A stretch of 64,000 nucleotides of DNA from Pyrinomonadaceae bacterium (GTDB lineage Bacteria; Acidobacteriota; Blastocatellia; Pyrinomonadales; Pyrinomonadaceae): contig CAVWZW010000003.1 in NCBI GenBank assembly GCA_963759585.1, positions 68,547 to 132,546 on the forward strand. The letters are read 5' to 3'. The translations under genes were made by a program, and so were the position numbers. This document shows positions 1-20,367 of this stretch, piece after piece (positions within the stretch are counted from its first letter, which is position 1; every line of letters starts with the position of its first letter). The notes under the pieces were generated by a model, which did not search any database, was not told the origin of the DNA, and was given only the letters and a program-made list of their open reading frames with translations.

Positions 1-1
1 G

Positions 2-529
2 TTTCAATCGCGTGGTTACTACATCTACCGGTTCTTTTCCGCCGTGGGCAAGATTCCGGTGTCGGAAGAGTTTTATCCAGACTTCGCGAAGGTCAGCGGG
101 TTCTTAACTGCCGATCAGTTGGAAGCGAATAAGGCAGCCTATGTTAATGAAGTGATGGCGCGAGCGGAATTTCAGACGAAGTACGCTTCAACGTTGAACA
201 ACCCGACGGCTTATGTTGATGCGTTGCTGCAGACGGTGGGACTACCGAATCACCCGGGTCGAGCTGGCTGGATTAACACGCTGAACGCCAATAACACCAC
301 GCAGACGCAAGGACAGGTGCTGAGGCAATTGGTAGAGAGCGGGGAAGTATTCAACAAGTATTTCAACGAAGCGTTTGTGATCATGCAGTATTTCGGTTAC
401 CTCCGCCGCACAGCGGATGCGTCGTATTTGAACTGGATTCAGACGATGAATCAGACCAATGGCGACTACCGGATCATGATCAATGGCTTCATGAACTCAG
501 CTGAATACCGGCGCCGCTTCGGACCCTGA
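2..529 (+). CDS. 3' part (5'-truncated by the window edge) of a secreted protein ending in the DUF4214-like C-terminal module
   Basis: The frame is open from base 2 (FQSRGYYIYRFFSAVGKIPVSEEF...) to the TGA at 527-529. It is colinear and almost identical to the C-termini of the ORFs ending at 4424, 8640 and 12072. Confidence 0.9.
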   Translation, partial: FQSRGYYIYRFFSAVGKIPVSEEFYPDFAKVSGFLTADQLEANKAAYVNEVMARAEFQTKYASTLNNPTAYVDALLQTVGLPNHPGRAGWINTLNANNTTQTQGQVLRQLVESGEVFNKYFNEAFVIMQYFGYLRRTADASYLNWIQTMNQTNGDYRIMINGFMNSAEYRRRFGP

Positions 530-554
530 TGTTCATAGCCTCAGGCGCTGGGAC

Positions 555-722
555 GCCTCCTTGGAGTGCGGTGCCTTGTCACCGCTTTGGCCCGCGGCGG
601 CTTGGCGCCGCTTCCTTTCGGTAGGGTGTGATGAAATCTCTGGGACATGCAGGCGCCGCGACAGCGTGGCGCCAAGCCGCCACGGGCCAAAGCGCCGACA
701 AGGCGGCGCACTCCAAGGAGGC
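555..722. repeat. Family-A long palindromic intergenic element, copy 1
   Basis: Left arm gcctccttggagtgcggtgccttgtcaccgctttggcccgcggcggcttggcgcc (555-609). It pairs as an imperfect reverse complement with ggcgccaagccgccacgggccaaagcgccgacaaggcggcgcactccaaggaggc (668-722). Related copies lie at 4447, 8662, 12098 and 57494. Confidence 0.9.
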
Positions 723-773
723 GCCCAAGGATTCGAGCTCGAGTTCCCTCGCGATTTACAAGGAGTAGATAAG

Positions 774-3700
774 GTGTTTCGATTCCCCCGCGGCTTAAAG
801 TCGCGCCGTGCGCAAGTTGAGATGAAGCTCGGATTACTAGCATTATTTATCCTGTTCTTTTCTCCGGCGATTCAAGCCCAATCTGTTCGAGGCTTTAAAG
901 CTCCGGAAAAGCCAGCCAAGTCCGAGTTGCCAATTCAGTTGAGGGCCGCCCGCGGCCAAGCGCCTTTGCGCAAGTTGCATGACCACCTCAAGGCCGACTG
1001 GTCACACCTGAAGCGTCTACCGTCATTCATCCCAAGCGAACGCACGGACCAGCGGTCAAATAAACGGGTGCAACTCGGAGTGGTGAGGTCTTTCGCGAAG
1101 CCCCTACATCCTTCCATCGATAGTCGCCTCTATCAGCTTGCCGAGGGGGAGGTGCGCGTTTCGGGAATAGTCTCTGAAGGAGCGCTTTACACTCGCGTCC
1201 ACTTCACCAGTATGTCGCTGCCGGCGGGGGCCCGTGTATTTGTCTATTCATTAAAGAATCCGGACGAGTTTTATGGTCCATATGAAGGAAGAGGACCTTC
1301 CGAGGATGGCACATTCTGGACTCCTCCGGTTTCAGGGGATGCTGTTGCGATTGAATACTTCAGTCCGTATGGACGTGCGGAAACTGCGGGCGCACCGTTT
1401 ATCGTGTCAGAGATAAGCCACGTCTATCGCGATCCATTAAAGGCTACGACAGATGATGAAGCTGGGTCCTGCAATCTTGAGGTAACCAGCGACTGGACCG
1501 AGGTGGCGAAGTCTGTCGGCTTTCTCGAGTTTGTTGACAACGGTTCGGAGTACGCTTGCACTGGGACACTGCTAAACACCCAGGCCAACGATCAAACGCC
1601 GTATCTGCTTACTGCCAACCACTGCTTCAGCAGCCAGTCGGCCGCGCAATCTTTGCGCGTCTATTGGAACTACAACACTGGCGAGACGCCACCGGGAGGT
1701 ACTCCATTTACCGACGGCGCCAATCTCCTCGCCACAGCAACTTCAAGTGACTTCACTTTTGTGCGCTTGACTGGCTCTCTACCGGGTGGACTCTTTTTCT
1801 CCGGCTGGGACGCCACGACGACCAGTTTGAATACTCCGGTAACAGGCATCCATCATCCTGAGGGGTCACACAAACGAATCGCTTTTGGCGCCACTAACTC
1901 AACTTGTAACGTCGTTCTACCGGGGCCATGCTCTAACTTTACTCATGTTGCCTGGAACGCTGGTACGACTGAGGGAGGTTCATCCGGCTCAGGACTGTGG
2001 AAGGGAAGTCCTTCAAATCCTTTGTTGGTTGGATCGCTCACGGGTGGGGAGGCTTCATGCAGCAACCGGTTCGGAATTGATCACTACGGAAGCTTCAGCG
2101 CAACCTATCCAGGCATCGCTTCGTTTTTGGCTGGGAGCGGAGCCGATCTATCACTTATCAAGAGCACAGCTTTCGACCTCATCTCACCCGGAGCCCAAAT
2201 CGTCTACCTCCTGACTGTGACAAATCATTCAGCCTCGGTCGCCAGTGCGATTACGGTTACTGATAATCTTCCTTCTGAAGTTAGTTATGTTTCGTGTACT
2301 GCCGCAGGCGGCACATGCGGCGGCTCTGGAAACAATCGGACCGTACATTTTCCTTCGTTGGCTGCCGGAGCTTCTGCCACTGCGGTGATCGTTGCGACTG
2401 TTAATGCTTCGGTGTCCAACGCCACGGTGATTACTAACTCGGCAAGTGTGGTCGCTTCCACCTCTGATCCAAACCACGCTAACAACGGCGCCACGGCACT
2501 GGCGACGGTTCAATCTTCTCCTTTCGCGGCGAAATCGAATGGCAAAATTGCCTACGGCTCCGATCACGCCGGCACGACTGGCCCAAGCGGCTTTTACACA
2601 ATTAATCCAAACGGCACTAACGATTCAATCCTCTTCACGCTCGAGCCTTTTGGGTCGGCGCCCGCATGGTCACCTGATGGCTCGAAGATAGCGTACGGTA
2701 AAAGGAATGCCGGAATGTTTGACGCGGAGATCCATGTTGCCAATGCTGATGGAACCGGTTCACTGAAGATTGCAGGCAACGTCTTTAATCAGAATAGCCG
2801 GATCGCCTGGTCGCCAAACGGCGCGAAGGTCGCCTTCATTGGAACGGGCAATGGGATTTATATCGTCAACGCAAACGGCACCGGATTATCGCGACTACCA
2901 AATACACCTACATCGGTTAATGACCTGGCGTGGTCTCCCGATGGCTCAAAGATCGCCTACACGAGCGGTGCTGATGTCTTTGTCATGGGCATCGACGGCA
3001 GCAATCAGACCAATCTCACCCAGTTACGTCCTAAGATTCAGCTGGAGCAGGCGCTAAGTCGCTTTCCACGCTGGTCACCAGATGGGACGAAACTAATATT
3101 CGGCGCCGAGTCAAACAACTACAAAAATGTCTACATCATGAACGCGGACGGCTCGGCCCTCGCGCCCCTGGTTACCATGCACCAATCGATGCAGCCTGCC
3201 TGGTCACCTGATGGCGCCAGAATTACGTTTGTGGCACTTAACGGTTTGTATGTGGCGAATTCGGATGGAACGGGGGCGACTGCGCTTCCGAGCGGCGGAA
3301 TTTATAACTTCAAACCTGATTGGCAGCCGTTGGCGGTTAGTTCCCAAACGGTTCAGTTCAGCGCCGGTAATCAGGCCGTTTCCGAAGGTGCTGGACACGC
3401 GCAGATCCTGGTCACGCGAAGCGATCCGACCAATGCGGCTACGGTTGATTATGCAACCACGGACAATGCTGCGCTAACCGAATGCAATTTTGTGGATGGT
3501 TTGGGTTCCTCGCGTTGTGATTACGCTACCACCATTGGCACTTTGCGTTTCGCTGCCGGAGAGTCTTCGAAGACTATCTTCATCCCCGTGGTTGACGATG
3601 TTTACACCGAAGGCACTGAAACTTTTTCAATTACCCTCAGCAACGCAAGTGGATTAACTCTCGGTTCGCCCGCCTCAGTCCTAATCACGATTCAGGATAA

Positions 3701-4424
3701 TGACACGAGTAGCGGAGCAAACCCGATTGATGCGACAGACTTCTTCATTCGCCAACAGTACATCGACTTTCTTGGCCGCGAGCCTGACCCCGCGGGTTTG
3801 GCCGGCTGGCGCAACGTGATGAATAACTGCGGCATGACCGTAGCTCCTCCGTGTGATCGTATTGAAGTGTCGGCGGGCTTCTTCCGCAGTGAGGAGTTTC
3901 AGTCGCGCGGTTATTTCATCTATCGCTTCTTTTCTGCCCTCGGCAAGATTCCCGTGTCCGGGGAGTTCTATCCGGACTTCGCAAAGGTGAGCGGGTTTCT
4001 AACCTCTGAACAGTTGGAAGCGAACAAGGCTGCTTATGTGAATGAAGTCATGGCGCGTGCCGACTTCCAGACGAAGTACAGCGCTACGTTCGGCAACCCA
4101 ACAGCTTATGTAGACGCTCTGCTACAGACCGTAGGATTGCCGACTCATCCCGGCCGTGCGGGCTGGATCAGCACATTGAATAGTAATAACAACACGCAGA
4201 CGCGAGGGCAGGTGTTGAGGCAGCTGGTGGAGAGCGGCGAAGTCTTCAACAAATATTTCAACGAAGCCTTTGTAATCATGCAATACTTTGGTTATCTGCG
4301 CCGCACCGCGGATGCGTCGTATCTGAACTGGATACAGACGATGAATCAGACAAACGGCGACTACCGGACCATGATTAATGGTTTCATTAATTCGGCTGAG
4401 TATCGTCGCCGCTTTGGACCATAA
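774..4424 (+). CDS. Secreted multidomain protein: trypsin-like (S1) serine protease + DUF11-like repeat + PD40/TolB-type propeller repeats + Calx-beta + triple DUF4214-like module
   Basis: Protease motifs LLTANHC and GGSSGSGLW. Repeated AWSPDGSKIAY-type PD40 motifs. Calx-beta-like VQFSAGNQAVSEGAG...TIQDND. C-terminal DFFIRQQYIDFLGREPDPAGLAGW... The hydrophobic signal peptide is MKLGLLALFILFFSPAIQAQ. GTG at 774 has AAGGAG 8 nt upstream; ATG at 822 is an alternative start. The ORF-track start at 561 lies inside the repeat and is unlikely. Confidence 0.85.
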   Translation: MFRFPRGLKSRRAQVEMKLGLLALFILFFSPAIQAQSVRGFKAPEKPAKSELPIQLRAARGQAPLRKLHDHLKADWSHLKRLPSFIPSERTDQRSNKRVQLGVVRSFAKPLHPSIDSRLYQLAEGEVRVSGIVSEGALYTRVHFTSMSLPAGARVFVYSLKNPDEFYGPYEGRGPSEDGTFWTPPVSGDAVAIEYFSPYGRAETAGAPFIVSEISHVYRDPLKATTDDEAGSCNLEVTSDWTEVAKSVGFLEFVDNGSEYACTGTLLNTQANDQTPYLLTANHCFSSQSAAQSLRVYWNYNTGETPPGGTPFTDGANLLATATSSDFTFVRLTGSLPGGLFFSGWDATTTSLNTPVTGIHHPEGSHKRIAFGATNSTCNVVLPGPCSNFTHVAWNAGTTEGGSSGSGLWKGSPSNPLLVGSLTGGEASCSNRFGIDHYGSFSATYPGIASFLAGSGADLSLIKSTAFDLISPGAQIVYLLTVTNHSASVASAITVTDNLPSEVSYVSCTAAGGTCGGSGNNRTVHFPSLAAGASATAVIVATVNASVSNATVITNSASVVASTSDPNHANNGATALATVQSSPFAAKSNGKIAYGSDHAGTTGPSGFYTINPNGTNDSILFTLEPFGSAPAWSPDGSKIAYGKRNAGMFDAEIHVANADGTGSLKIAGNVFNQNSRIAWSPNGAKVAFIGTGNGIYIVNANGTGLSRLPNTPTSVNDLAWSPDGSKIAYTSGADVFVMGIDGSNQTNLTQLRPKIQLEQALSRFPRWSPDGTKLIFGAESNNYKNVYIMNADGSALAPLVTMHQSMQPAWSPDGARITFVALNGLYVANSDGTGATALPSGGIYNFKPDWQPLAVSSQTVQFSAGNQAVSEGAGHAQILVTRSDPTNAATVDYATTDNAALTECNFVDGLGSSRCDYATTIGTLRFAAGESSKTIFIPVVDDVYTEGTETFSITLSNASGLTLGSPASVLITIQDNDTSSGANPIDATDFFIRQQYIDFLGREPDPAGLAGWRNVMNNCGMTVAPPCDRIEVSAGFFRSEEFQSRGYFIYRFFSALGKIPVSGEFYPDFAKVSGFLTSEQLEANKAAYVNEVMARADFQTKYSATFGNPTAYVDALLQTVGLPTHPGRAGWISTLNSNNNTQTRGQVLRQLVESGEVFNKYFNEAFVIMQYFGYLRRTADASYLNWIQTMNQTNGDYRTMINGFINSAEYRRRFGP

Positions 4425-4446
4425 AGGAAACAGCCTCTTGGGCGGG

Positions 4447-4634
4447 GCGCCTCCTTGGAGTGGGCGCCTCCTTGGAGTGCGGTGCCTTGTCACCGCTTTG
4501 GCCCGCGGCGGCTTGGCGCCGCCTTCTTCTAGTCAGGGGCAAGGTGGATTAGTGGGACGTGCAGGCACCGGCAAGGCTGCGACAGGTCGCAGCAGGCCAA
4601 AGCGGTGACAAGGCACCGCACTCCAAGGAGGCGC
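4447..4634. repeat. Family-A palindromic element, copy 2
   Basis: gcgcctccttggagtgcggtgccttgtcaccgctttggcc is a perfect reverse complement of ggccaaagcggtgacaaggcaccgcactccaaggaggcgc (4595-4634). The left end carries a tandem duplication of gcgcctccttggagtg. There is an inner small hairpin, ctgcgacaggtcgcag. Confidence 0.9.
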
Positions 4635-4743
4635 CCTGTCGACGGTCGTCTTCGCTAACGACGCAAGCTAAGGCTAACGGAGCACTACCTAAAGCCTGTA
4701 CGCCTGTACTGAATGCCGCGAATTGTGATAAAGGAATCCCTCG

Positions 4744-7700
4744 TTGAAAGTTACACGCAGCTACTTATCCGCAATCATTAATCCTCACGCAATTACTCGC
4801 TCGTTACTCGTCTTGTTAGCGGTCGTAATCTGCGCCGGATACCTATTGGCCAGCCCGCAGACGTCATCAAAGAAATCGAAACCCGGGTCTCGTCGCGCCA
4901 TAACTCAGCGTCAAAAAAAGATGCCCGCTACCAGTGCGCTGAAGAACTCGAACAACAAGGCGAGCAAGGAGCCGGCCAGAGGTCAGGCCGATAATCCTGA
5001 TGGCAGGTTGAATTGGTTTTTGTATCAACGCGCGTATCCCTTTAACGAAGTGCCGGCCAACGCGCGCAGGCTTGCCTGGGAATCGATTCCACGACGAAGT
5101 AAGTTTGGAGCCGATCTCTTGAGCGGCGAAGCCCTCAACAGTGTTTGGTCGCCCATTGGCCCACTGCCGACCACGTCAGCATTTCCCAACAACGGCGGGC
5201 CCACCTCGGGACGAATAAACGCGATTGCTGTGTCGCCTCTCGATCCGCAGATCGTCTTGATTGGATCTGCGACTGGCGGTATCTGGCGATCCAGCAACGG
5301 TGGAACCACGTTCGTTCCTGTTACTGACACACATGTTGATCTGGCGGTCGGGAGTATTGCTTTCGCGACTGCAAATCCGGCGATTGTCTATGCGGGAATG
5401 GGCGATAACGACCAGGGTTATTTTGGCTCCGGTGTGCTGCGTTCGATGGATGCCGGACTGACCTGGACCAGGATCAATAACACGACCTTGCCAGAGAAAG
5501 GCCAGTCAACAAAGATCCTGGTTGATCCCACAAACCCGAACAAGGTCTATCTGGCACAGTTTAATTATCTGGATGCGGTGAACAATATAAGTTTCGTGAA
5601 CGGAATCTACGTTTCGAATGATGGGGGAGTTAATTGGACGAGGACTCTAAACTGTTCAGTTCGCGACCTTGCCATTCATCCCACTAATCCCGCGATCCTC
5701 TACGCTGGGGTCTCGTTTCGACCTGGTGGGGTTCCAGGTCTCTACAAATCCATCGATGGCGGCCAGACCTGGAACAACATTTTAGCTTCGCCTTATGTGA
5801 GCTCATCGACAGCCACCCGCGACTTCCGTGTTGCTGTCACACCAGCCAATCCAAATCGCGTCTACGTCTATTTTGGCACTCGCACCACAAATCCCTTTGA
5901 AGTGCGACTTGAAATGAGTGACGACGCTGGAGCCACCTGGACCAACCGAGGTGTGATTGGAAACACCAGCCTCGATGTCGGCCAGTTCGGCTATAACACT
6001 TACCTGGCGGCAAGCTCGATCAATGCCGACACTATTTACGTTGGAACCCGCGATCTCTTCAGAAGCACTGACGGCGGCGTTACCTTCACCAATCTTTCAA
6101 CCTCCTTTGCGCCAAACGGAAACTACCAGCCTTTCTCTCAAAAGTTTCACGCGGATCAGCAGTCGTTTGCTTTCGATCCCGAGAGCAGTAGCACTTTCTA
6201 TGCAGGCAACGACGGAGGGCTATGGAAGACAACTGACAATGGTGTCTCCTTCACGTCGTTAAACAACACACTTTCTCTTACTCAGTTCGTAAGTATGGGC
6301 GTGCACCCAACTGACGCTGCCCGGTCCTTTGGCGGTACCCAGGACAACGGCACGCAGATGCGTCTGGCGGGAGGTAGCGGGTGGCGAGAGTTTAGTTCGG
6401 GCGACGGCGGCCGATTAGTAATCAATCCACTCAATCCTGAGATGGTGTTTACGAGTTATGTGAACGGCGTCATGAATCGCTATACGGCAAACGGACTTTC
6501 GTTTAGCGGGAAGATTTCCGACGCAGACAGTTTCGCAGAGCCATCATCCGGACCTCGAATAGCTTTTTACCCGCCAATCGTTAGCAATGGTGTAGACAGT
6601 AAAATTTATCTCGGCACATGGCGGCTGTTCATTTGTTCTGACTGTAACGACACAACCAGGCGATACAACACAGCGAACCTGCCCACCTGGACCGCACCCG
6701 GAGGCCTCACCGATCTAACGAATGGTGGGTCCGATGTTCTGAGCGCAATCGGCGTGGCGAAGAGTAACAACAACATCATCTACACGGGCTCGCGAGCCGG
6801 CCGGGCCATGGTGAGTGTGAACGGCGGAGTGGACTGGGCGAACATTACTAGTGGACTGCCTGCCAGATCGATAACGAGTATCACAGTAAGTCCAGCGGAT
6901 CCGTCCCTCGTTTACCTGACCGTGTCAGGTTATGGCACTGGTCACATTTTCCGATCCGTTAACGGCGGAGGGTCGTGGACAAACATCAGCACCACGTTGC
7001 CGAATATTCCTGTCAGCGCATTCCTGATCGATCCTCTGACGGCCACGACGTTTTATGCCGGCACCGATATAGGTGTGTTTCGGTCGACAGATAGCGGTGA
7101 AACGTGGACCGCCTTCAATGATGGTCTTCCCCCAGTGCCGGTGATGGCGCTCTCAGCCCAGGCATCAGGTTTGATTCAAATCGGAACCTACGGCAGGGGC
7201 GCATACCAGTTCTCTGCGAGCTCGACTCCATCACCAACACCCACGCCGACACCAACGCCAACACCGGGGCCGACGCCGACACAGTATTTTATCTCCGGCA
7301 CGGTGAAGGATAACGCTAACAATCCGGTGAGTGGCGTCTTAATAACATTCGAGATGAACGTGCAGGGAACAATTTTCTCTGCGATGACACAAACGGACGC
7401 GAGCGGAAACTACACGTCTGGAAATCTGGGGTGCCCTAACAACGTCAAGGTCACCCCGTCAAAGACCGGATTCACGTTTACTCCACCGGGCATCGTTCTC
7501 GTAAGTTCACAGTGTTTGACCGGCACCGGCACGGCCAACTTCACCGCCACCGCCACGCCGAGTGGAACTCAGTTTAGCGCCAGCAGCTTTGTGAGTGGAG
7601 AAAACAGCGGAAGCGTGCAGGCGACAGTCAGTCGAGGAGACACGGCAGGGGTAGCCACAGTTGAATACGTCACCAGCGATAATGCCGCGCTGAATGAATG

Positions 7701-8640
7701 TAATGTAATGAATGGAATGGGGTCGTCGCGTTGCGACTACGCCACGACGATAGGGACGCTTCGTTTTGCCATCGGAGAGAGTTCCAAGACAATCTTTATC
7801 CCCGTGGTCGATGATGCCTACGCCGAAGGCAATGAGGCGTTTACGATCACCCTGAGAAATCCTTCCGGAACAACCCTTGGAACGCAGGCCTCAGCCACCA
7901 TTACCATCCAGGACAACGACACAAACACAGGAGCCAACCCGATCGATGGCGTCGATTTCTTCATTCGCCAACAGTACATCGACTTTCTGGGTCGTGAACC
8001 CGACCCGGTAGGGTTGGCCGGTTGGCGCAATGTGTTGAACAACTGCGGCACAAGCGTCCCGCCGCCATGTGATCGTATCGAGGTCTCCGCAGGCTTCTTC
8101 CGGAGTGATGAGTTTCAGTCGCGCGGTTATTTTATCTATCGCTTCTTTTCAGCGTTGGGCAGAATTCCGGTATCGGGAGAGTTCTTCCCTGACTTTGCCA
8201 AGGTGAGCGGGTTTTTGACTGCTGAACAGTTGGAAGCGAATAAAGCAGCCTATGTTAATGAAGTCATGGCGCGGGCAGACTTTCAAACAAAGTACAGCTC
8301 GACCTTCAGTAATTCCACGGCTTACGTTGACGCGTTACTCCAGACTGTTGGCCTATCGAATCATCCTGGTCGTGCCGGGTGGATCAACTCGCTGAATGCC
8401 AACAACAACACGCAGACTCGCGGACAGGTGTTGAGGCAACTGGTGGAGAGCGGGGAAGTCTTTAACAAATACTTCAACGAAGCGTTTGTGATCATGCAGT
8501 ACTTTGGCTATTTGAGGCGCACAGCAGACGCCTCGTATCTAAACTGGATCCAGACTATGACTCAGACGAACGGCGATTACCGGATTATGATTAACGGCTT
8601 CATGAACTCGTCTGAGTACCGCCGCCGCTTCGGCCCGTAA
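4744..8640 (+). CDS. Secreted BNR/Asp-box (sortilin/Ycf48-like) beta-propeller protein + Pro/Thr linker + carboxypeptidase-regulatory-like domain + Calx-beta + triple DUF4214-like module
   Basis: About ten SxDxGxTW-type motifs (SMDAGLTWTR, SNDGGVNWTR, SIDGGQTWNN, SDDAGATWTN, STDSGETWTA...). Linker TPSPTPTPTPTPTPGPTPT. ISGTVKDNANNPVSGV. The C-terminal module matches its neighbours. TTG start at 4744 with AAGGAA 7 nt upstream, and an N-terminal TM/signal segment LLVLLAVVICAGYLLA. Confidence 0.85.
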   Translation: MKVTRSYLSAIINPHAITRSLLVLLAVVICAGYLLASPQTSSKKSKPGSRRAITQRQKKMPATSALKNSNNKASKEPARGQADNPDGRLNWFLYQRAYPFNEVPANARRLAWESIPRRSKFGADLLSGEALNSVWSPIGPLPTTSAFPNNGGPTSGRINAIAVSPLDPQIVLIGSATGGIWRSSNGGTTFVPVTDTHVDLAVGSIAFATANPAIVYAGMGDNDQGYFGSGVLRSMDAGLTWTRINNTTLPEKGQSTKILVDPTNPNKVYLAQFNYLDAVNNISFVNGIYVSNDGGVNWTRTLNCSVRDLAIHPTNPAILYAGVSFRPGGVPGLYKSIDGGQTWNNILASPYVSSSTATRDFRVAVTPANPNRVYVYFGTRTTNPFEVRLEMSDDAGATWTNRGVIGNTSLDVGQFGYNTYLAASSINADTIYVGTRDLFRSTDGGVTFTNLSTSFAPNGNYQPFSQKFHADQQSFAFDPESSSTFYAGNDGGLWKTTDNGVSFTSLNNTLSLTQFVSMGVHPTDAARSFGGTQDNGTQMRLAGGSGWREFSSGDGGRLVINPLNPEMVFTSYVNGVMNRYTANGLSFSGKISDADSFAEPSSGPRIAFYPPIVSNGVDSKIYLGTWRLFICSDCNDTTRRYNTANLPTWTAPGGLTDLTNGGSDVLSAIGVAKSNNNIIYTGSRAGRAMVSVNGGVDWANITSGLPARSITSITVSPADPSLVYLTVSGYGTGHIFRSVNGGGSWTNISTTLPNIPVSAFLIDPLTATTFYAGTDIGVFRSTDSGETWTAFNDGLPPVPVMALSAQASGLIQIGTYGRGAYQFSASSTPSPTPTPTPTPTPGPTPTQYFISGTVKDNANNPVSGVLITFEMNVQGTIFSAMTQTDASGNYTSGNLGCPNNVKVTPSKTGFTFTPPGIVLVSSQCLTGTGTANFTATATPSGTQFSASSFVSGENSGSVQATVSRGDTAGVATVEYVTSDNAALNECNVMNGMGSSRCDYATTIGTLRFAIGESSKTIFIPVVDDAYAEGNEAFTITLRNPSGTTLGTQASATITIQDNDTNTGANPIDGVDFFIRQQYIDFLGREPDPVGLAGWRNVLNNCGTSVPPPCDRIEVSAGFFRSDEFQSRGYFIYRFFSALGRIPVSGEFFPDFAKVSGFLTAEQLEANKAAYVNEVMARADFQTKYSSTFSNSTAYVDALLQTVGLSNHPGRAGWINSLNANNNTQTRGQVLRQLVESGEVFNKYFNEAFVIMQYFGYLRRTADASYLNWIQTMTQTNGDYRIMINGFMNSSEYRRRFGP

Positions 8641-8661
8641 CTAACTACGGGGCTTGCACGC

Positions 8662-8838
8662 CCCTTGGAGTGCGGTGCCTCCTTGGAGTGCGGTGCCTTG
8701 TCACCGCTTTGGCCTGCTGCGACCTGTGGCAGCTTTAGGGGGTTGACTAACTTCTCAGGTAAAGAAGCGGCGCCAGGCCGCCGCGAACCAAAGCGCCGAC
8801 AAGGCGGCGCACTCCAAGGAGGGCTCCAAGGAGGCGCC
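8662..8838. repeat. Family-A palindromic element, copy 3
   Basis: Left arm ccttggagtgcggtgccttgtcaccgctttggcc, right arm accaaagcgccgacaaggcggcgcactccaaggag. Both ends carry a short tandem duplication of the ccttggag / ctccaagg core. Confidence 0.85.
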
Positions 8839-9043
8839 TCCAATGTGGCGCTTTCAGGTGAGTCTCCAGGGTGCCGAATTTTGTTACTGCCCCTGCACTT
8901 TTTTCGCGTCTAAACCTCAGGTTTACGGGCAACGATTTCGCCCCTTTTTACCACTAATAATGCTGCTATTCACCCGACTCACCCGGCAATCCTGCTGATT
9001 GGATTAACGTCTAATCTCAGAAGATATAAGAAGGAGAAACATT

Positions 9044-9574
9044 GTGAGAAGACTGCGCTCTACAATTCGATACGCCAGCAAAAAACTACGCCGCCAGACG
9101 GTGTTAACCGCTTTGGTGGCTACTGTGATTCTCGCCGCAGGGGCGATGACGGTGCTTTCACGACAAAGTGCGGGGACGAGAGAGGAGTCGCGGATGGCTG
9201 ATAAAACCACAGTTGTGAATTCGAAAATGGCGCATCAGGACGCTCATCTCACGGATGACTCTGGGCGCCAGGAGCTAACGGCCGAAGACGCGCAGAAACT
9301 GGGAGCAGGCCTCAAAGAATTAGTTAATCAGTCGACCGAAGGCCTGGTCGAGACTAAGCACGCCGATGGAAGTGTATCGGTCGATCTGGATGGCCGCTTC
9401 CAAAATGTGACGGTTGCCCGAATCAACAAGGACGGAAGCCTTGAGCAATCGTGTGTCGATAATCCACAGGCGGCAGGCGCGTTCTTCGGTATCGATCCAA
9501 AACTGATCGATAACACCGCGGAAAGTGGCAGTACAAAACGACCGAAGGTTAATCCGGCTAAAACAAGGAATTAA
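9044..9574 (+). CDS. Hypothetical small secreted or membrane-anchored protein
   Basis: GTG start with AAGGAGA 6 nt upstream. N-terminal basic region plus hydrophobic segment TVLTALVATVILAAGAMTVL. I recognise no family. It ends 23 nt before the metalloprotease gene. Confidence 0.6.
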   Translation: MRRLRSTIRYASKKLRRQTVLTALVATVILAAGAMTVLSRQSAGTREESRMADKTTVVNSKMAHQDAHLTDDSGRQELTAEDAQKLGAGLKELVNQSTEGLVETKHADGSVSVDLDGRFQNVTVARINKDGSLEQSCVDNPQAAGAFFGIDPKLIDNTAESGSTKRPKVNPAKTRN

Positions 9575-9597
9575 GGGGCGAAAAGCGACTACTAATA

Positions 9598-12072
9598 ATG
9601 AAGCATATAATCTCCAAACTCCCTACGCTCTTACGTGCTGCTATCGTCGGCGTCATGGCATCTACCTGCGCTTTCGGCGCCAACGTAGTCGTTGAAAACG
9701 CCGATGGTCCTAATATGGGTTTCAATGACCCCACACCAGTTTCCCCGGTTGGCGGCAATCCAGGAACAACCCTGGGCCAGCAGAGGCTGCTCGCGCTTCA
9801 GTATGCAGCCAGCATTTGGGGCGCAAGGCTGAGCAGCGGACCCACGATTACAATTCGCGCGACCTGGGAATCACTGACCTGCACTGCAAACACGGCAGCC
9901 CTGGCTTCAGCTGGAAATAGTGGTGGCATTTTTAGAGACTTTGCCGGCGCGGTCCCAAACACCTGGTACGGAAACGCACTTGCCAATGCGATCAGGAACA
10001 TCGACTCAAACGGTTCCACGCATGAAATTAATGCTCGCTTCAATCTGAATATTGGTACCCCGGGATGTTTGGCGAGCGCTCACTGGTATTACGGACTGGA
10101 TACCAATCACGGTGACGGCGGCGTTAACCTCGTAAGCGTGGCTATGCACGAATTCGCGCACGGGTTGGGATTTCAAACCTTCACGAGCTCCAGCACAGGC
10201 GCACAGGCGTTTGACGTTCCCAGTATCTATGACAGGTTTCTAATGGATAACTCCACCGGCAAACTATGGCCTGAAATGATCGATGCGGAGCGGCAGGCTT
10301 CCGCCATCAACACGACCCATCTTGTTTGGAACGGCCCCAGGGTTAAAGCGGATGTGCCGAGTGTACTCAAGACGCCCTTGCTCAAGGTGAATACGCCGCC
10401 TGCGATTGCAGGCAACTATGAAATTGGCACGCCTGAATTCGGTCCGGCACTGTCGTCGCCGGGGATAACGGCTAATGTTGTCCAGGCGAGTCCAATAGAC
10501 GGTTGCGCAGCTCTCACAAATGGCGCCGCGATTTCTGGAAGGATCGCGCTAATCGACCGGGGCGGTTGCAATTTTACGGTAAAGGTCAAGAATGCTCAGA
10601 ATGCCGGCGCGGTTGGAGCGATCATCGTCAACAATGTAGCCGGTGGTCCTCCAGGGATGGGAGGTTCAGATCCCACAATCACAATACCAAGCGTGTCGAT
10701 TACGGACGTTAACGGCAATGCCATCAAAGCTCAGCTGGCTTCAGGTGTGAATGCTTCGTTGTTGCTTGATGCCTCGACACCTGCCGGTGCTGACTCGGCT
10801 GGGCGCATCCGAATGTTCAGCCCCAGCCCAGTCGAAGGCGGTTCATCGGTTTCACACTTTGACGAGACTCCCTTTCCTAACCAGTTGATGGAACCCAACA
10901 TCAGCAGCGATCTAACACACAACGTTACGCCGCCCTTTGATTTGACGACCTCTTTATTTGCAGATCTCGGTTGGCAGTTGCTCGGGCTCCCGAACACACT
11001 GCAACTGAACGCGAGCAATTTCAACTTCTCTGAAGGTGCAGGGAGTGCTCAGGTCGTCGTAACGCGAACGGATACATCGACCGCGGCGACAGTCGACTAC
11101 TCCACCAGCGACAGCGCGGCACTAAACGAATGCAATGTGATAAATAACCTTGGTTCGTCGCGCTGCGACTACGCCACGACGCAGGGCACACTTCGGTTTG
11201 CCGCGGGTGAAGCTTCAAAAACAATCTTCATTCCACTCGTGGACGATGGTTACGCGGAGGGGACCGAGACCTTCACGATTACTTTGACTAATGCAACCGG
11301 AACGACGCTCATCACGCCGTCTTCAGCAAGCATCACGATCCAGGACAATGAAGGCAGCACTGGAGCGAACCCGATTGACGGTGTTGATTTCTTTATTCGC
11401 CAGCAGTACATCGACTTCCTTGGCCGCGAACCTGACCCGGCGGGATTGGCCGGCTGGCGCAATGTGCTCAACAACTGCGGAACAACTGTGGCCCCGCCAT
11501 GTGATCGTATTGAAGTGTCTGCCGGCTTCTTCCGTTCGGAAGAGTTTCAGTCGCGCGGTTACTACATCTACCGCTTCTTTTCCGCGGTGGGAAAGATTCC
11601 CGTCTCGGAAGAGTTTTATCCTGATTTCGCGAAGGTCAGCGGTTTCTTAACGGCCGAGCAGTTGGAAGCGAACAAGGCGGCCTATGTTAATGAAGTGATG
11701 GCGCGTGCGGAATTTCAGACGAAGTACGCTTCCACCTTCGGTAACCCGACAGCTTATGTTGACGCGTTGCTGCAGACGGTTGGCCTACCGAATCATCCGG
11801 GTCGAGCAGGCTGGATTAACACGCTGAACGCCAATAACACCACGCAGACGCGCGGTCAGGTGTTCAGACAGTTGGTGGAGAGCGGGGAAGTCTTTAACAA
11901 GTATTTCAACGAAGCGTTTGTGATCATGCAGTATTTCGGTTACCTCCGCCGCACAGCGGATGCGTCGTATCTGAACTGGATTCAGACCATGAATCAGACC
12001 AATGGCGACTACCGGATCATGATCAATGGCTTCATGAACTCAGCTGAATACCGGCGCCGCTTCGGACCCTGA
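9598..12072 (+). CDS. Secreted zinc metalloprotease-like protein with PA (protease-associated) domain + Calx-beta + triple DUF4214-like module
   Basis: Signal peptide MKHIISKLPTLLRAAIVGVMASTCAFG. HEFAHGLGF (HExxH). PA-like GRIALIDRGGCNFTVKVKNAQNAGAVGAIIVNN. The C-terminal module matches its neighbours. Confidence 0.85.
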   Translation: MKHIISKLPTLLRAAIVGVMASTCAFGANVVVENADGPNMGFNDPTPVSPVGGNPGTTLGQQRLLALQYAASIWGARLSSGPTITIRATWESLTCTANTAALASAGNSGGIFRDFAGAVPNTWYGNALANAIRNIDSNGSTHEINARFNLNIGTPGCLASAHWYYGLDTNHGDGGVNLVSVAMHEFAHGLGFQTFTSSSTGAQAFDVPSIYDRFLMDNSTGKLWPEMIDAERQASAINTTHLVWNGPRVKADVPSVLKTPLLKVNTPPAIAGNYEIGTPEFGPALSSPGITANVVQASPIDGCAALTNGAAISGRIALIDRGGCNFTVKVKNAQNAGAVGAIIVNNVAGGPPGMGGSDPTITIPSVSITDVNGNAIKAQLASGVNASLLLDASTPAGADSAGRIRMFSPSPVEGGSSVSHFDETPFPNQLMEPNISSDLTHNVTPPFDLTTSLFADLGWQLLGLPNTLQLNASNFNFSEGAGSAQVVVTRTDTSTAATVDYSTSDSAALNECNVINNLGSSRCDYATTQGTLRFAAGEASKTIFIPLVDDGYAEGTETFTITLTNATGTTLITPSSASITIQDNEGSTGANPIDGVDFFIRQQYIDFLGREPDPAGLAGWRNVLNNCGTTVAPPCDRIEVSAGFFRSEEFQSRGYYIYRFFSAVGKIPVSEEFYPDFAKVSGFLTAEQLEANKAAYVNEVMARAEFQTKYASTFGNPTAYVDALLQTVGLPNHPGRAGWINTLNANNTTQTRGQVFRQLVESGEVFNKYFNEAFVIMQYFGYLRRTADASYLNWIQTMNQTNGDYRIMINGFMNSAEYRRRFGP

Positions 12073-12097
12073 TGTTTATAGCCTCAGGCGCTGGGAC

Positions 12098-12300
12098 GCC
12101 TCCTTGGAGTGCGGTGCCTTGTCACCGCTTTGGCCCGCGGCGGCCTGGCGCCGCTTCCTTTCGGTAGGGTTAGATCATTCGGAGGGGCGGGTAGGCGCAG
12201 CGAAAGCTGCGACAGGTCGCAGCAGGCCAAAGCGCCGACAACCGGGGTCCCCAGCGCGGCAGCCGCGATGGGGTGGCGTGGCGGCGCACTCCAAGGAGGC
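12098..12300. repeat. Family-A palindromic element, copy 4
   Basis: The left arm is identical to copy 1 except for one base. The right arm is interrupted (ggccaaagcgccgacaa ... ggcggcgcactccaaggaggc). It has the same inner ctgcgacaggtcgcag hairpin as copy 2. Confidence 0.85.
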
Positions 12301-12401
12301 ACCCTCGCCAGGAGGCGCTTCACCAACGACGCAAGCTAAAGCTTGTTACGCCTGTAGTTCTTCGCTGGCCTTTTCGTTTGGCCCCGAATACTCTCTTCCA
12401 C

Positions 12402-13550
12402 ATGCGCGTTGGACTCGACGGTATTCCGCTGGCAAATCCGCGCACCGGCGTCGGCCATTACACTTTCGAACTAGCGCGCCACCTCGCCATCATCTCCGCA
12501 CCAGACGAATTCGAACTCCTTTCGCCCTTTTCCTTTAATCCACCACTCGATGATCACGATTTGCCGGCGGGGCTTCGGGCAGTCCAGGTTAAAGTAAATT
12601 CACTTAGCCGGCGTTGGTTTGCAGTGGGCCTGCCTCTGCACCTGAGGCACTCGAAGTTTGATCTTTTTCATGGCACAAACTACGAGGTTCCGCTCTGGAG
12701 TAAATCTCCGTCGGTGCTAACCGTTCACGACCTCTCTTTGTTTCTCCTCCCGGAAACTCACGAACCGCATCTTGTGCGTCGCGGTCGCAGGCGACTGCCA
12801 ATCATGGCGCGCAGAGCCGATTGCCTGATCACGCCGTCGCAAACAATTAAGCGCGAGGTGATTCAACATCTTCGGATTGGTGACGCCCAAATTGTGGTCA
12901 TCCCCGATGCGCCGCGTAGCGTATTCCGGCCCATGCCTCTCGAGGAAACAGTAGCCACGCGAACAAAGCTTGGCATAGAACCCGAGTTTATTCTGTTCAC
13001 CGGAACTCTGGAGCCGCGGAAGAATTTAACGACACTGCTGAAAGCGTTTGACGAGATCATGCGCAAAACTGCGCTACGTCCTCAATTGGTGATTGCCGGC
13101 AAAGAGGGTTGGTTAATGGACGAACTGCGGCAGCAAATGGAGCAGCGTGACTTAAAGGATCGGCTGCGTTTCACAGGGTATTTGCCAGATGATGAGTTGC
13201 GAGCTCTTTATTCTTCATGCCGGGTTTTTGTTTACCCATCGCTTTATGAGGGTTTCGGATTGCCGCCGCTTGAAGCAATGGCTTGCGGGGCGCCCGTGAT
13301 AACCAGCAGCATCTCGAGTCTGATCGAGACTACGGGAACGGAGGCCGCACGACACGTTGCAGCCTTGGACGTCGAAGGCCTGGCCCAAAGCATTGTTGGT
13401 CTCTTGGAGAATGACAGCGAGCGGAAGTATCTTTCATCGGCCGGAATAAAACACGCAGCGGGATTTAGTTGGCACAAAGTGGCTGCTTCGACGTTGGAAG
13501 TTTACAGACAGGTGATGAAGCAGAAATCCGTATCTGTCCACCATTCATAA
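12402..13550 (+). CDS. Glycosyltransferase family 1 (GT4-type)
   Basis: [28 protein letters not shown] start typical of GT4. C-terminal [20 protein letters not shown] motif. The ORF-track extension from 12273 runs into the repeat. Confidence 0.85.
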
Positions 13551-13554
13551 GAAC

Positions 13555-14868
13555 ATGAGCAACGAAGCCGATGAATTACGAGCCCGCATTTTGGGAATGA
13601 TTGGAGAATATTACGAGGCCGCCTTTCCCAAGCGCAAATTCATTCCCGGCGAAACTCCGGTACCAATCTCAGGCAAGGTCTTTGATGCCGAAGAGATTCG
13701 GCTTTTGGTCGATGCAGGTTTGGATTTTTGGCTGACTACCGGACGCTACGCCGCGCAGTTTGAAACCGAGTTTTCGCGCTTCTTTGGGCTTCGTTACGCG
13801 ATGCTGACGAACTCTGGTTCCTCGGCAAACCTGTTGGCGCTAAGCTGTCTAACGTCCCCCTCGTTAAAAGAACGCGCTCTGCAGGCGGGCGACGAAGTTA
13901 TCACTGTCGCAGCAGGTTTCCCCACCACCATCAATCCGATAATCCAATACGGACTGGTTCCAGTACTCGTGGACGTCGAAATTCCGACTTACAACGTCGA
14001 TGTCGACCAGCTTGAAGCTGCGCTTAGTGAGCGCACCCGAGCCGTCGTGTTGGCCCACACTCTGGGCAATCCGTTTGAAGCAAAACGCGTTGCAGACTTC
14101 GTAAAGCAGCACAATCTTTGGTTGGTCGAAGATTGTTGCGATGCGGTGGGAGCGACTTACCAGGGACGACAGGTGGGAACGTTTGGTGATCTGGCAACCA
14201 CCAGTTTTTATCCGGCGCATCACGTCACCATGGGCGAAGGTGGTTGTGTGCTAACTGACAGGCCCGCGCTGAAAACCCTGGTTGAATCGTTTCGGGATTG
14301 GGGCCGCGATTGCTGGTGCGTTCCGGGTGTGGCAAACACCTGTGGCAAACGTTTCGATTGGCAGTTAGGTGATCTGCCTTACGGTTACGATCACAAGTAC
14401 ACTTATTCTCACATCGGTTACAACTTGAAACTTACCGACATGCAGGCCGCCGTCGGAGTGGCCCAGCTGCAAAAGTTGCCGAAGTTTATCGAAACGCGAC
14501 GGCGAAATTTTCAATTTCTTTACGATGGTTTGAGTGACCTGCAGGAGTTTTTCATTCTGCCGCAGGCAACGGCTGGCGGGGAACCAAGTTGGTTTGGTTT
14601 TCCATTAGCTGTGCGGCCGGAGGCGCCCTTCTCGCGCGACGAAGTGCTGCGCTGGCTCGACGAGCGAAAGATTGCCACGCGTCTGCTGTTTGGAGGCAAT
14701 CTGCTTCGGCAGCCGGCCTATCAGAACGTGCGCCATCGAAAGATTGGCGAACTTGCCAACTCGGATTTCGTGATGAACCAGGTTTTGTGGATGGGGGTGT
14801 GGCCTGGGCTGTCTCAAGAAATGTTGGGCTTTATGATCGACACCTTGCACAGGATGGTTAAGAAGTAA
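13555..14868 (+). CDS. rfbH: DegT/DnrJ/EryC1-family PMP/PLP enzyme, RfbH/DdhC-like (CDP-6-deoxy-4-keto-hexose 3-dehydrase type)
   Basis: 437 aa. The N-terminus [36 protein letters not shown] and [41 protein letters not shown] resemble RfbH/E1 dehydrases as I recall them. Confidence 0.7.
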
Positions 14869-14869
14869 G

Positions 14870-15829
14870 ATGCAGTGTCTGATCACGGGAGCTTCAGGTC
14901 ACCTTGGCTCATTTCTTACAAAGCGTTTGTTGCGAGATGGTTGGAACATCACTGCGCTGGTCAGGCCCGAGAGCGACCTTTGGCGGTTGAATGATGTACT
15001 CTCGCAAATCAACATCATTCGCGCCGACCTGGCAGACGTATCAAGCGTGGCGAGCGCGGTTGCTCAGTCGAAACCCGAGGTGGTTTTCCACCTCGCATGG
15101 CAGGGCGTGACCGGTGCATTCAAAAATGACCCTGCACAGCTTGAGGTTAATTTGACAGGCAGTCTGAAGCTTTTTGAAATTGTGCGAGCCGCTGGTTGCA
15201 AGGTCTGGCTGGGAATCGGTTCGCAAGCGGAATACGGCCGGCACGAAGAAATCTTAAACGAAGACACTCCATGCCAGCCTGAGACAGAGTATGGCGCCGC
15301 TAAACTAAGCCTGGGCCGTCAAACGAAAGAGCTGTGCAATGACGCGGGGATTCGCTATCTGTGGATGCGGCTATTGGCGACGTACGGTCCAATGGACGAT
15401 GAAAGGCATTTGATTCCGTCTGTAATTCTTCAACTGCTTCGTAGGGAACGTCCACGGCTAACCGGTGGCGAGCAACGATGGGATTACCTCTATGTCGAAG
15501 ACGCGGCAGATGCAATCTATCGTGCAGCTGTTACGAGCAACGCTCAGGGCGTTTTCAACCTTGGCTCAGGACAGAGCCACACCATCCGCAATATCCTGGA
15601 GCGCATACGAGACCTAATCGATCCGGGGTTGGAACTGGGTTTCGGTGAAGTGGCGTATCCGCCCGATCAATTGATGCGATTGGAAGCCAGCGTCGAGCGG
15701 CTTCGCCGGGCGACCGGATGGACTCCGCGAGTTGGCCTTGATGAAGGTTTAGGTCGAACGGTTGAGTGGTATCAAGGGCTAAACTCGGATGGATTAAACA
15801 GGCCCGTGGGCAAAGGGCGCGTAGTTTAG
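14870..15829 (+). CDS. NAD(P)-dependent epimerase/dehydratase-family (extended SDR) sugar nucleotide reductase/epimerase
   Basis: Rossmann motif ITGASGHLGSFL and catalytic YGAAK. Its start is 2 nt after the rfbH-like stop. Confidence 0.8.
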   Translation: MQCLITGASGHLGSFLTKRLLRDGWNITALVRPESDLWRLNDVLSQINIIRADLADVSSVASAVAQSKPEVVFHLAWQGVTGAFKNDPAQLEVNLTGSLKLFEIVRAAGCKVWLGIGSQAEYGRHEEILNEDTPCQPETEYGAAKLSLGRQTKELCNDAGIRYLWMRLLATYGPMDDERHLIPSVILQLLRRERPRLTGGEQRWDYLYVEDAADAIYRAAVTSNAQGVFNLGSGQSHTIRNILERIRDLIDPGLELGFGEVAYPPDQLMRLEASVERLRRATGWTPRVGLDEGLGRTVEWYQGLNSDGLNRPVGKGRVV

Positions 15830-15973
15830 TGTTCAACTTTTGGGTTGGGTTTTTGCTGGCCAAGACGCAAGCTGAAGCTTGAACTCTGAACTGCGCGCCC
15901 CTGGCCCACCTCTCGTTAGATTGCTCGTGACGGATACACCGTTTCCCTGATTACCGATTACTTGAATGACCTG

Positions 15974-17692: not shown

Positions 17693-18174
17693 TGTCGGAC
17701 ATGCTTCAGGAAGCTCTGAACAAGTCCATTTTGGATTTGTACTCGAAGCGATTACGTAATTTCAGCCCAAGGGTTGCCCATGAGGCCTGCACAAGAAGTT
17801 TTCGAGCCTAGTCCGCAAAGCGGACGACTGATGATAGCCCAGCAGTTCACTGCTGGGAGTAGGACGAACGTAAGGCGCAGTCCGTGAAGCGGACGGCTGA
17901 AAATGTAGCTCATCTAGACAGTATCATTCAGCCGTCCGCTGCACGGACTACGTTTTCTCGCGCGTCGATCCCAGCAGTAAACTGCTGGGCTATTATCAGC
18001 CGTCCGCTCAACGCGGACTGGAAACCAATTTTTTGTACAAGGCGTCCTTGCGATCGCACGACAAGCTGAACAGCTTGTCGTAGGTGGTTCAGAACCCCAA
18101 TGTGCGACGCTACAAGCAGCATCATTTCTTGAGTGTTGTGAATCCAAACGGCAAGCTGAAGCATGTCGGACATT
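17691..18174. repeat. Family-B nested palindromic MITE-like element, copy 1 (core 17782-18044) bounded by 19-bp inverted repeats
   Basis: aatgtcggacatgcttcag (17691-17709) matches the reverse complement of ctgaagcatgtcggacatt (18156-18174) at 18 of 19 bases. The core consists of sub-hairpins gtccgcaaagcggac, cccagcagttcactgctggg and gtccgtgaagcggac, mirrored in the right half. Confidence 0.85.
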
Positions 18175-18200
18175 GATGAGCTATCCGAGAGTCTTTAGAT

Positions 18201-19512: not shown

Positions 19513-20367
19513 TTAGAAACGGTTGCGATATTCCGCGGAGTTCATGAAGCCGTTAATCATCGTGCGGTAGTCACCGGTCTGGTTCATGGTATTGATCCAG
19601 TCGAGATAGAGGATGTCCGGATCGCGACGGAGATAGCCGTGATACTGCATCACTACGAAAGCCTCGTTGTAATACTTGTTGTAAACCTCTGACGCCTCGC
19701 TGATCGCTCTCAACACCTGCGCCCGAGTCTTGGTGGCCGCGTTCAGATCATTAATCAACTGCTGCGAGTTGCCTATGGTAACGCCCGCGGTGCTTACCAG
19801 CGTATTCACGAAGTCAGCGTTGCTTAAAGCGTCATACTTCGTCTTGAATTCCTGCCGCGCCATGAAGTCGTTAATGAAGGCCACTTTGCTGGCTTCTAGC
19901 TGCTGGTCGGTCTGGAATCCACTAACGCGACGCGCGTCGGGAATGAACTCGGCATACAGGGGCACGCGCTTAAAGCTCACCGAATAGAAGCGGTAAACGA
20001 AGTAGCGTCGTACCTGAAACTCGTCGGAGCGAAAGAAAGCGGAGCTGACTTCAATTCGATCGCAAGGCGGTGGGGTGGTAGTGCCGCAACCGTTCATGAC
20101 ATTCATCCAGCCCTGGAAACCACCGGGCTCCGGCATACGCGCCAGGAAGTCGATGTAGTGCTGTTGAATGAAAAAATCGTTGTCATCAATGGTGATTGGC
20201 GTGTTCGTGCCTGGACGCAAACGCAGCGGCTTCACCTTAACGTTGCCGTAATAAAGCTCCGAGGGAAGGGTCGGGTCTTCGGTGACGATTCTGAGTGTGG
20301 GGCTCTGCCCAAGCGCGCTAACAGCCGTGAGCGCGATTACAAAAAGGGTTATGGCTAACTTCATCAT
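19513..20367 (-). CDS. Small secreted protein made almost entirely of the triple DUF4214-like module
   Basis: Signal peptide MMKLAITLFVIALTAVSALGQ with AGGAG 5 nt upstream of the ATG at 20367. DFFIQQHYIDFLARMPEPGGFQGWMNVMNGCGTTTPPPCDRIEVSSAFFRSDEF ... MNGFMNSAEYRNRF is colinear with the C-termini of the 0-12 kb genes. Confidence 0.85.
   Translation of the reverse strand: MMKLAITLFVIALTAVSALGQSPTLRIVTEDPTLPSELYYGNVKVKPLRLRPGTNTPITIDDNDFFIQQHYIDFLARMPEPGGFQGWMNVMNGCGTTTPPPCDRIEVSSAFFRSDEFQVRRYFVYRFYSVSFKRVPLYAEFIPDARRVSGFQTDQQLEASKVAFINDFMARQEFKTKYDALSNADFVNTLVSTAGVTIGNSQQLINDLNAATKTRAQVLRAISEASEVYNKYYNEAFVVMQYHGYLRRDPDILYLDWINTMNQTGDYRTMINGFMNSAEYRNRF

Follow-up and report, generated by a model that had tools for sequence, protein, structure and literature searches.

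The window analysed here is a 64,000-nucleotide stretch of the genome of a Pyrinomonadaceae bacterium (assembly GCA_963759585.1, contig CAVWZW010000003.1, positions 68,547 to 132,546). At its left end lie four co-oriented genes whose products have unrelated heads and one shared tail, a C-terminal cassette made of a Calx-beta domain and a helical DUF4214 module. We tentatively read this tail as a putative non-covalent anchor; it would hold the enzymes to an O-polysaccharide-type glycan of the producing cell itself, and Calx-beta would serve as a spacer. A sequence-only reading of the same DNA had proposed a retention or sorting tag; the checks on position and signal peptides given below were passed, and computation alone does not separate sorting from retention.

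Acidobacteria, one of the most abundant groups of bacteria in soil, live by extracellular polymer degradation. Each of the closest metagenome-assembled genomes (MAGs) has at least 10-17 genes with the cassette, and public data contain more than 1500 protein clusters (50% identity) that carry it; the cassette provides a handle on what would be their surface-displayed secretome.

Tagged genes and their tail

The four open reading frames (ORFs), labelled A, B, C and D, are on the plus strand and end at 529, 4424, 8640 and 12072. The ORF list and Pfam searches bore out their common orientation, their unrelated heads and their one C-terminal module, as described in the sequence-only reading. Gene A (1-529) is cut at its 5′ end by the window edge, leaving the last 175 amino acids (aa) of the DUF4214 module and the stop codon. 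Gene B (822-4424) encodes a signal peptide, S1-like motifs, DUF11 and a PD40 propeller, followed by Calx-beta (3312-3713) and the DUF4214 module (3714-4421). Gene C (4744-8640) encodes an N-terminal hydrophobic segment, a Sortilin-Vps10/BNR propeller, a Pro/Thr linker and CarboxypepD_reg, then Calx-beta (7531-7929) and the DUF4214 module (7930-8637). Gene D (9598-12072) encodes a signal peptide and an HExxH metalloprotease with a PA domain, then Calx-beta (10960-11361) and the DUF4214 module (11362-12069).

Among the heads, Pfam recognized DUF11 and PD40/DPPIV_N in B, Sortilin-Vps10/BNR and CarboxypepD_reg in C, and the PA domain in D, where a HEFAHG motif is present. The S1 protease that had been assigned to B together with DUF11 and PD40 is visible as motifs alone (TANHC, GGSSGS), and Pfam gave no trypsin family in B at E <= 0.01. 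Signal peptides had been claimed for all three complete proteins; they are classical in B and D, and C has an N-terminal hydrophobic segment. The B protein is identical to database protein P0121, which is carried on a 281-kb public contig. It probably starts at ATG 822 instead of the mechanical ORF start at 561, since position 561 falls within an intergenic repeat.

The tails align colinearly over their full 370 aa with no rearrangement, and the last 175 aa are 90-97% identical across A, B, C and D, so that the near-identity noted earlier stands. All four end in ...INGF(M/I)NS(A/S)EYRRRFGP. Each tail exceeds the gathering score for Calx-beta (E 1e-11 to 1e-15), for DUF4214 (E 1e-8 to 1e-14) or for both. 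The DUF4214 scores (PF13946) are 33.7-63.9 bits in A, B, C, D and a fifth copy introduced below (gathering score 23.2), and the Calx-beta scores (PF03160) are 44-58 bits (cutoff 27).

Two cysteine pairs had been pointed out, and neither of them varies among 41 relatives. The Calx-beta domain contains C58/C69, in an insertion that is about 11 residues long relative to the Calx-beta domains of Na/Ca exchangers and bears the first cysteine; C173/C181 lies in the first DUF4214 repeat. The description of the helical part as a triple DUF4214 repeat is approximate. Its first and last units, R1 and R3, are indeed homologous (hhalign probability 89%, E 2e-6), but two middle helical units are degenerate (probability 29-46%) and Pfam calls two units.

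AlphaFold2, given 41-46 homologues, modelled the whole tail of D with pLDDT 84 and pTM 0.77 (model m0c386d62db1f), and the helical part of D alone with pLDDT 90 and pTM 0.81, predicting 14 helices (model mc94fbf890b80). The beta part resembles CBD1 structures of NCX and CALX (Foldseek E 1e-10, TMt 0.8-0.89). Calx-beta matches dominate the Foldseek search with the whole-tail model, and a search of PDB sequences with a single module returned only Calx-beta domains of Na/Ca exchangers.

The array had been described as one of four genes; the window holds a fifth copy of the module, on the minus strand at 19513-20421. This copy encodes a signal peptide, about 45 aa and the DUF4214 module, with no Calx-beta and no cargo. 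Further cargo-less modules were seen among protein representatives (P0207, on a 1.9-kb contig, and P0191).

Position, export signals and cargo in relatives

Relatives were taken as 74 loci from species-representative genomes, comprising 15 MAGs labelled Pyrinomonadaceae or Acidobacteriota (mostly Pyrinomonadaceae). Hidden Markov models (HMMs) were built for both parts of the module and searched against all stop-to-stop ORFs of the 74 loci. Constant C-terminal position and constant company of a signal peptide had been suggested as checks on the tag idea, and both came out in its favour. The 236-aa helical part ends 0-3 residues before the stop codon in 108 of the 108 ORFs with an intact 3′ end (15 MAGs and the window); it is never internal. 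Calx-beta stands directly upstream of the helical part in all but about eight of these ORFs.

A phmmer search of 1.84 billion cluster representatives (50%-identity clusters) gave 6675 matches at E <= 1e-3 and 1513 at E <= 1e-30. Among the 150 best cluster representatives, the match runs to the last residues of the protein in 148. The two others are P0202, which has 48 extra residues, and P0157, where the match is truncated. The named relatives are all Acidobacteriota/Pyrinomonadaceae. Up to 17 distinct copies were recovered per genome, and at least 10-17 in the closest MAGs.

Signal-peptide-like N-termini were found in 77 of 82 complete tagged ORFs (those carrying the cassette) versus 53 of 111 neighbouring control ORFs. 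The heuristic is crude, 48% of the control ORFs also being positive, so the claim rests on the contrast with controls and on inspection of the N-termini, which read as typical signal peptides in the tagged ORFs. In one 495-aa ORF (L007, 6739-8223), which lacks a credible signal peptide, the module is reduced to its last half (HMM positions 120-236); decay or a frameshift of a tagged gene is the probable origin.

Calx-beta, which had been taken as part of the module, is its usual companion but can be absent: about 8 of roughly 100 relatives lack it. Tagged ORFs of this kind occur in L024, L027, L028, L037 and L064, as well as in proteins P0096 and P0120, with the helical module joined to the head. 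Because of this minority of tagged proteins, we regard the helical part as the invariant element of the cassette.

The heads fall into 47 strict clusters (70% mutual coverage). Clustering by single linkage at 50% coverage had chained 46 heads via shared accessory domains and was replaced. Representatives of 32 head clusters match 45 Pfam families. Cargo families include S8 proteases/subtilases, FG-GAP, SBBP, PD40 propellers, glucose/sorbosone dehydrogenase (GSDH), non-specific endonuclease, di-haem cytochrome c peroxidase (CCP_MauG) and BACON, with PPC in some heads; precomputed annotations add plastocyanin-like, LTD and PQQ heads.

Constraint on the module

Among B, C and D the helical part shows a synonymous divergence (dS) of 1.4-2.1, which is saturated, with a nonsynonymous divergence (dN) of about 0.05 and a dN/dS ratio (omega) of about 0.03. 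The Calx-beta part is less constrained, at omega about 0.12 (one of three pairs with finite dS). Only A and D are recent duplicates, their tails being 97% identical in aa with dS 0.35. Recent gene conversion as the cause of the near-identity is ruled out by the saturation of synonymous sites between B, C and D, and the near-identity is therefore attributed to selection. Judged from these estimates, the tail is under very strong purifying selection.

By sequence comparison the module tracks the genome and not the cargo. The window paralogues share 90-92% module identity despite their unrelated heads. An orthologue of the D head in JBBPIC is 73% identical in the head and 89% in the module, and an orthologue of the B head in CAWBSB is 68% identical in the head and only 65% in the module. 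Old homogenisation or shuffling of modules within lineages, followed by strong constraint, would explain this pattern; co-evolution of all copies with one genome-specific partner would explain it too. Modules that follow the genome are what would be expected if all copies bind one genome-specific ligand.

Neighbouring polysaccharide locus

The array abuts a polysaccharide locus of about 29 kb, of the ABC-transporter-dependent (wzm/wzt O-polysaccharide) type. The sequence-only reading had suggested the glycan made there as partner of the module, and the support found is circumstantial: a wzm/wzt locus that holds two DUF4214 proteins, and a linkage that recurs in other genomes. The two proteins are the secreted cargo-less module and a DUF4214-methyltransferase.

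The cargo-less copy is the last gene of a GT-C glycosyltransferase operon on the minus strand. Upstream of it lie genes for a multi-transmembrane (TM) protein of GT-C type (20590-21762, minus), whose L076 orthologue matches PF04188, and for two membrane proteins of GT-C type, one YfhO-like (22155-24980, minus) and one with DUF2079 (25073-27034, minus). Orthologues of the cargo-less copy occur in L071 (module identity 88%) and L073 (75%), with operon synteny conserved in both.

The DUF4214-methyltransferase gene (32063-34450, minus) encodes no signal peptide, and the product is presumably cytoplasmic. It has DUF4214 at aa 81-134, a predicted coiled coil, and class I and FkbM methyltransferase domains. 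The gene adjoins that of Wzt (34481-35776, minus), an ABC ATPase with the glycan-cap-binding domain Wzt_C. The L076 orthologue has the same architecture, DUF4214 included. This architecture recalls WbdD-type O-polysaccharide chain terminators and rulers, and from its domains the protein looks like a candidate O-polysaccharide chain terminator. The Wzm ABC-2 permease is encoded at 40352-41176 (plus).

Between wzt and wzm lie genes for a PD40-like protein of 835 aa (36158-38665, plus) and an M10 matrixin-like protein of 458 aa (38929-40305, plus), both without the tail. In L076, a 683-kb contig syntenic with window positions 20593-46625, a tagged protein of 587 aa occupies the place between wzt and wzm. 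The neighbourhood of three tagged genes in L081 also contains orthologues of the matrixin gene, the PD40-like gene and the first GT4 gene of the locus, with one further ORF between; it ends at the GT4 orthologue, and four other ORFs stand between that gene and the tagged genes. In CAWBSB, the cargo-less/glycan locus (L073) and a three-gene array (L023) share a contig and are about 5 kb apart.

In the window itself, the array is followed immediately by sugar-nucleotide and glycosyltransferase genes (12273-19163, plus), with GT4, DegT aminotransferase, epimerase/dehydratase, a thiamine pyrophosphate (TPP) enzyme and GT2. The locus holds three more GT4 genes, one fused to a methyltransferase. The TPP-dependent enzyme is of the acetolactate-synthase type (15962-17692, plus), and its place beside DegT and the epimerase suggests an unusual branched or modified sugar.

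Earlier DUF4214 proteins and known anchors

The cassette had been called undescribed, which was overstated, as C-terminal DUF4214 was reported earlier (PMC3371716, PMC12780176, bioRxiv 10.64898/2026.09.02.748959). In segmented filamentous bacteria (SFB) it unites 19 predicted secreted proteins and resembles the phycobilisome linker (PMC3371716, 2012), and it has been termed a likely surface-anchoring domain (PMC12780176); that role is a proposal there. Like the acidobacterial proteins, the SFB 'Cluster.1' proteins (Candidatus Arthromitus) have differing N-terminal parts and a conserved, C-terminal helical DUF4214 region with several conserved blocks. Unlike them, they belong to a monoderm Firmicute and lack Calx-beta, and no disulfide pairs or wzm/wzt link are reported for them. 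The acidobacterial family, with its 1513 50%-identity clusters at E <= 1e-30, is far larger.

Psh of Pseudomonas putida, an RTX-DUF4214 protein exported by the type I secretion system (T1SS), protects against phage and is encoded near O-antigen operons; O-antigen binding was proposed from modelling and gene neighbourhood (bioRxiv 10.64898/2026.09.02.748959). Psh and the tagged proteins, which are predicted to be exported as Psh is, both end in a helical DUF4214 domain; like the array, the gene for Psh lies near genes of O-antigen type, and Psh too is proposed to sit on O-antigen. Psh however has RTX repeats, lacks a Sec signal and is a substrate of a T1SS. It is a shield and not an enzyme carrier, and has a single DUF4214 region where the domain described here has 236 aa and several repeats. 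The tagged proteins have N-terminal signal peptides and no RTX family by Pfam, and no T1SS genes occur among the scanned window ORFs. A further DUF4214 protein, in 'Ca. Dechloromonas occultata', adjoins an S-layer gene (bioRxiv 10.1101/695007).

A full-text search of the literature on DUF4214, PF13946 and Calx-beta with Acidobacteria yielded no description of the acidobacterial cassette. DUF4214 as an anchor is thus an idea already known, as a proposal. The literature searched describes neither the acidobacterial form, which bears signal peptides and putative disulfides, is coupled to Calx-beta and has expanded hugely, nor its linkage with an O-polysaccharide locus.

SLH domains anchor non-covalently to an envelope glycan (pyruvylated secondary cell-wall polymer). 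As a functional analogy only, they are likewise repeated helical modules, terminal on many unrelated secreted enzymes and S-layer proteins. They have no sequence relation to the module, stand at either the N- or the C-terminus and act on a Gram-positive-type wall; Pfam found no SLH match in the tagged proteins, and no CsaB pyruvyltransferase was found among the scanned window ORFs. In a diderm bacterium, the N-terminal domain of RsaA (6T72, 6Z7P), which is helical and Ca2+-associated, serves to anchor a secreted protein on O-antigen. It differs in its N-terminal position and T1SS secretion, and homology is unsupported, the Foldseek match being non-significant.

Proposed retention on the own glycan and its alternatives

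Were the tail an anchor, Sec would export the tagged proteins, whose signal peptides are seen in the sequence; both conserved disulfides would form outside the cytoplasm; and the proteins would reach the cell surface, where the 236-aa all-helical DUF4214 domain would bind the own glycan made by the adjacent wzm/wzt locus. Between cargo and anchor, Calx-beta would act as a spacer stiffened by Ca2+. The producer would thereby keep its proteases, nucleases, redox enzymes and propellers and not lose them by diffusion, and the cargo-less copy of the GT-C operon would bind the same glycan. This reading draws on the strict C-terminal position, the signal-peptide-like N-termini, the four invariant cysteines, the diversity of cargo and the constraint on the whole domain. 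It draws further on module identity by genome, the recurrent wzm/wzt linkage, the literature on Psh and SFB, and the aromatic content of the module (15%).

Several observations weigh against it. Foldseek gave no match of the helical part to PDB structures at E < 0.2, hence no solved homologue and no known carbohydrate-binding fold. The RsaA N-terminal domain matched it at E 3-4.3 (TMq 0.36 for 6z7p, 0.18 for 6t72), a lead only. Its putative distant relatives, the phycobilisome linkers, bind proteins and not sugars. Since a presumably cytoplasmic enzyme of the same locus also has DUF4214, being a surface lectin is not intrinsic to the fold. The O-antigen binding proposed for Psh was in turn deduced from modelling and phenotype. 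Tagged genes are mostly scattered over the genome, and glycan genes are absent from several of their contexts. Finally, the tagged proteins could be periplasmic.

The possible kinship with linkers bears on a first alternative, that the module docks on a protein scaffold or on its own copies, in a dockerin-cohesin- or S-layer-like manner, and builds multi-enzyme envelope assemblies. We consider this unlikely. Phycobilisome linker domains, which are protein-protein connectors, are the sole candidates for remote relatives, in line with the relation already reported (PMC3371716). Linker proteins are also the best Foldseek matches of the helical part (E 0.23-3.5, TM about 0.2-0.3, non-significant) and the only matches of a 60-sequence profile of it among PDB sequences (E 0.3-0.4, non-significant). 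In the profile matches the linker domain (PF00427) shares with the helical part a terminal S-x-EY-xxx-FG motif, so that the EYRRRFGP ending is probably the normal end of the fold and not a special sorting motif. The constraint on all 236 residues (omega about 0.03) points to an interface of large extent, co-variation of modules by genome resembles species-specific dockerins, and the cargo-less copy could serve as a lattice or adaptor subunit. Yet no conserved candidate scaffold gene lies beside the tagged genes in the contexts examined, and where a genomic link is conserved, it joins them to glycan genes and not to one for a repeat-rich scaffold protein.

It is more doubtful still that the module is a true sorting or secretion signal, recognized and possibly removed by a dedicated machine in the manner of the type IX secretion system (T9SS) or exosortase. 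Such a role would fit a module that is always C-terminal, is paired with a signal-peptide-like N-terminus in 77 of 82 ORFs and has a huge cargo range. Moreover, the PA region of D resembles metalloproteases that carry myxosortase, T9SS or rhombosortase tags in other phyla, with NCBIfam matches below cutoff. As with T9SS C-terminal domains, PEP-CTERM and LPXTG, the same C-terminal element recurs on varied hydrolases that are exported by Sec (here putatively) and has expanded within a single lineage. Those elements, however, are either beta-sandwiches of about 80 aa or short motifs joined to a TM helix and basic tail, and a dedicated machine serves each of them; at 236-370 aa the module is far above the size of known sorting signals.

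The model searches also speak against a sorting signal. No NCBIfam model covers the tail, and no sorting-domain model of NCBIfam or Pfam matches it. For the T9SS C-terminal sorting domain, NCBIfam and Pfam gave no match at E <= 0.01, and the terminal domain of the tail is all-helical. The C-terminus (...NSAEYRRRFGP) has neither the hydrophobic helix nor the basic tail of PEP-CTERM, LPXTG or GlyGly-CTERM signals. That no sorting machinery is adjacent, as had been stated, agrees with the Pfam search: sortase, exosortase, T9SS, type II secretion system and T1SS genes were all absent from the 30 window ORFs scanned (7 unscanned) out of the 37 of at least 150 aa beyond 12072, and sorting machinery was absent from six annotated contexts of tagged genes. 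The cargo-less copy would have nothing to sort, and uniform extreme conservation is atypical of export signals.

Least probable is a generic accessory without cell attachment, targeting environmental polymers like a carbohydrate-binding module or aiding Ca2+-dependent folding or stability: large extracellular proteins commonly contain Calx-beta, a beta-sandwich that binds Ca2+, aromatic content is high, and C-terminal PPC and PKD domains are frequent on secreted proteases (PPC being present in some heads here), but the cargo (nucleases, cytochrome c peroxidases, copper proteins) has no common polymer substrate, and a stabiliser needs no strict terminal position, genome-wise co-variation or cargo-less copy in a glycan operon.

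The anchor reading can be extended, more speculatively, to a dedicated, lineage-specific exoenzyme display system in Pyrinomonadaceae-type Acidobacteria. The disulfide-locked cassette would recognize the cell's own capped O-polysaccharide and tether much of the secretome (proteases, nucleases, redox enzymes) to lipopolysaccharide. One and the same glycan epitope would be recognized on the two sides of the envelope, by the cargo-less paralogue and by the candidate DUF4214 chain terminator. Such a system, possible though doubtful, would correspond in function, in a diderm, to the attachment of SLH domains to secondary cell-wall polymer.

If binding to the own O-polysaccharide is true, DUF4214, present in 6675 50%-identity clusters, would gain its first general function; the SFB, Psh and acidobacterial observations would fall under one mechanism; and the module would be a portable tag with which to display enzymes at the surface of diderm cells. 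Should the partner be a protein, an undescribed cellulosome-like organisation would be indicated.

Other features of the array

A small ORF of 176 aa (9044-9574, plus) begins with a TM segment or signal, and NCBIfam recognized a post-PEP-CTERM_1 domain in it above cutoff (NF047450, E 1.5e-11). Its homologues, found by tblastn, lie directly upstream of tagged genes, mostly for PA-metalloproteases, in L004, L007, L009, L010, L021 and L053. The product may be a protease partner, inhibitor or chaperone.

An intergenic palindromic element of about 170 nt, not assigned to a strand, occurs at 551-731, 4462-4641, 8673-8832, 12094-12309 and 57502-57650. It is thus found 3′ of each of the four tagged genes, with another copy between glnA and glnE. 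The palindrome is imperfect, with arms CCTCCTTGGAGTGCGGTGCCTTGTCACCGCTTTGGCC / GGCCAAAGCGCCGACAAGGCGGCGCACTCCAAGGAGG. Rfam families gave no match in window positions 1-13000. The element looks like a repetitive extragenic palindrome or a miniature inverted-repeat transposable element and may act as a terminator. It also generates spurious ORF starts, such as that at 561.

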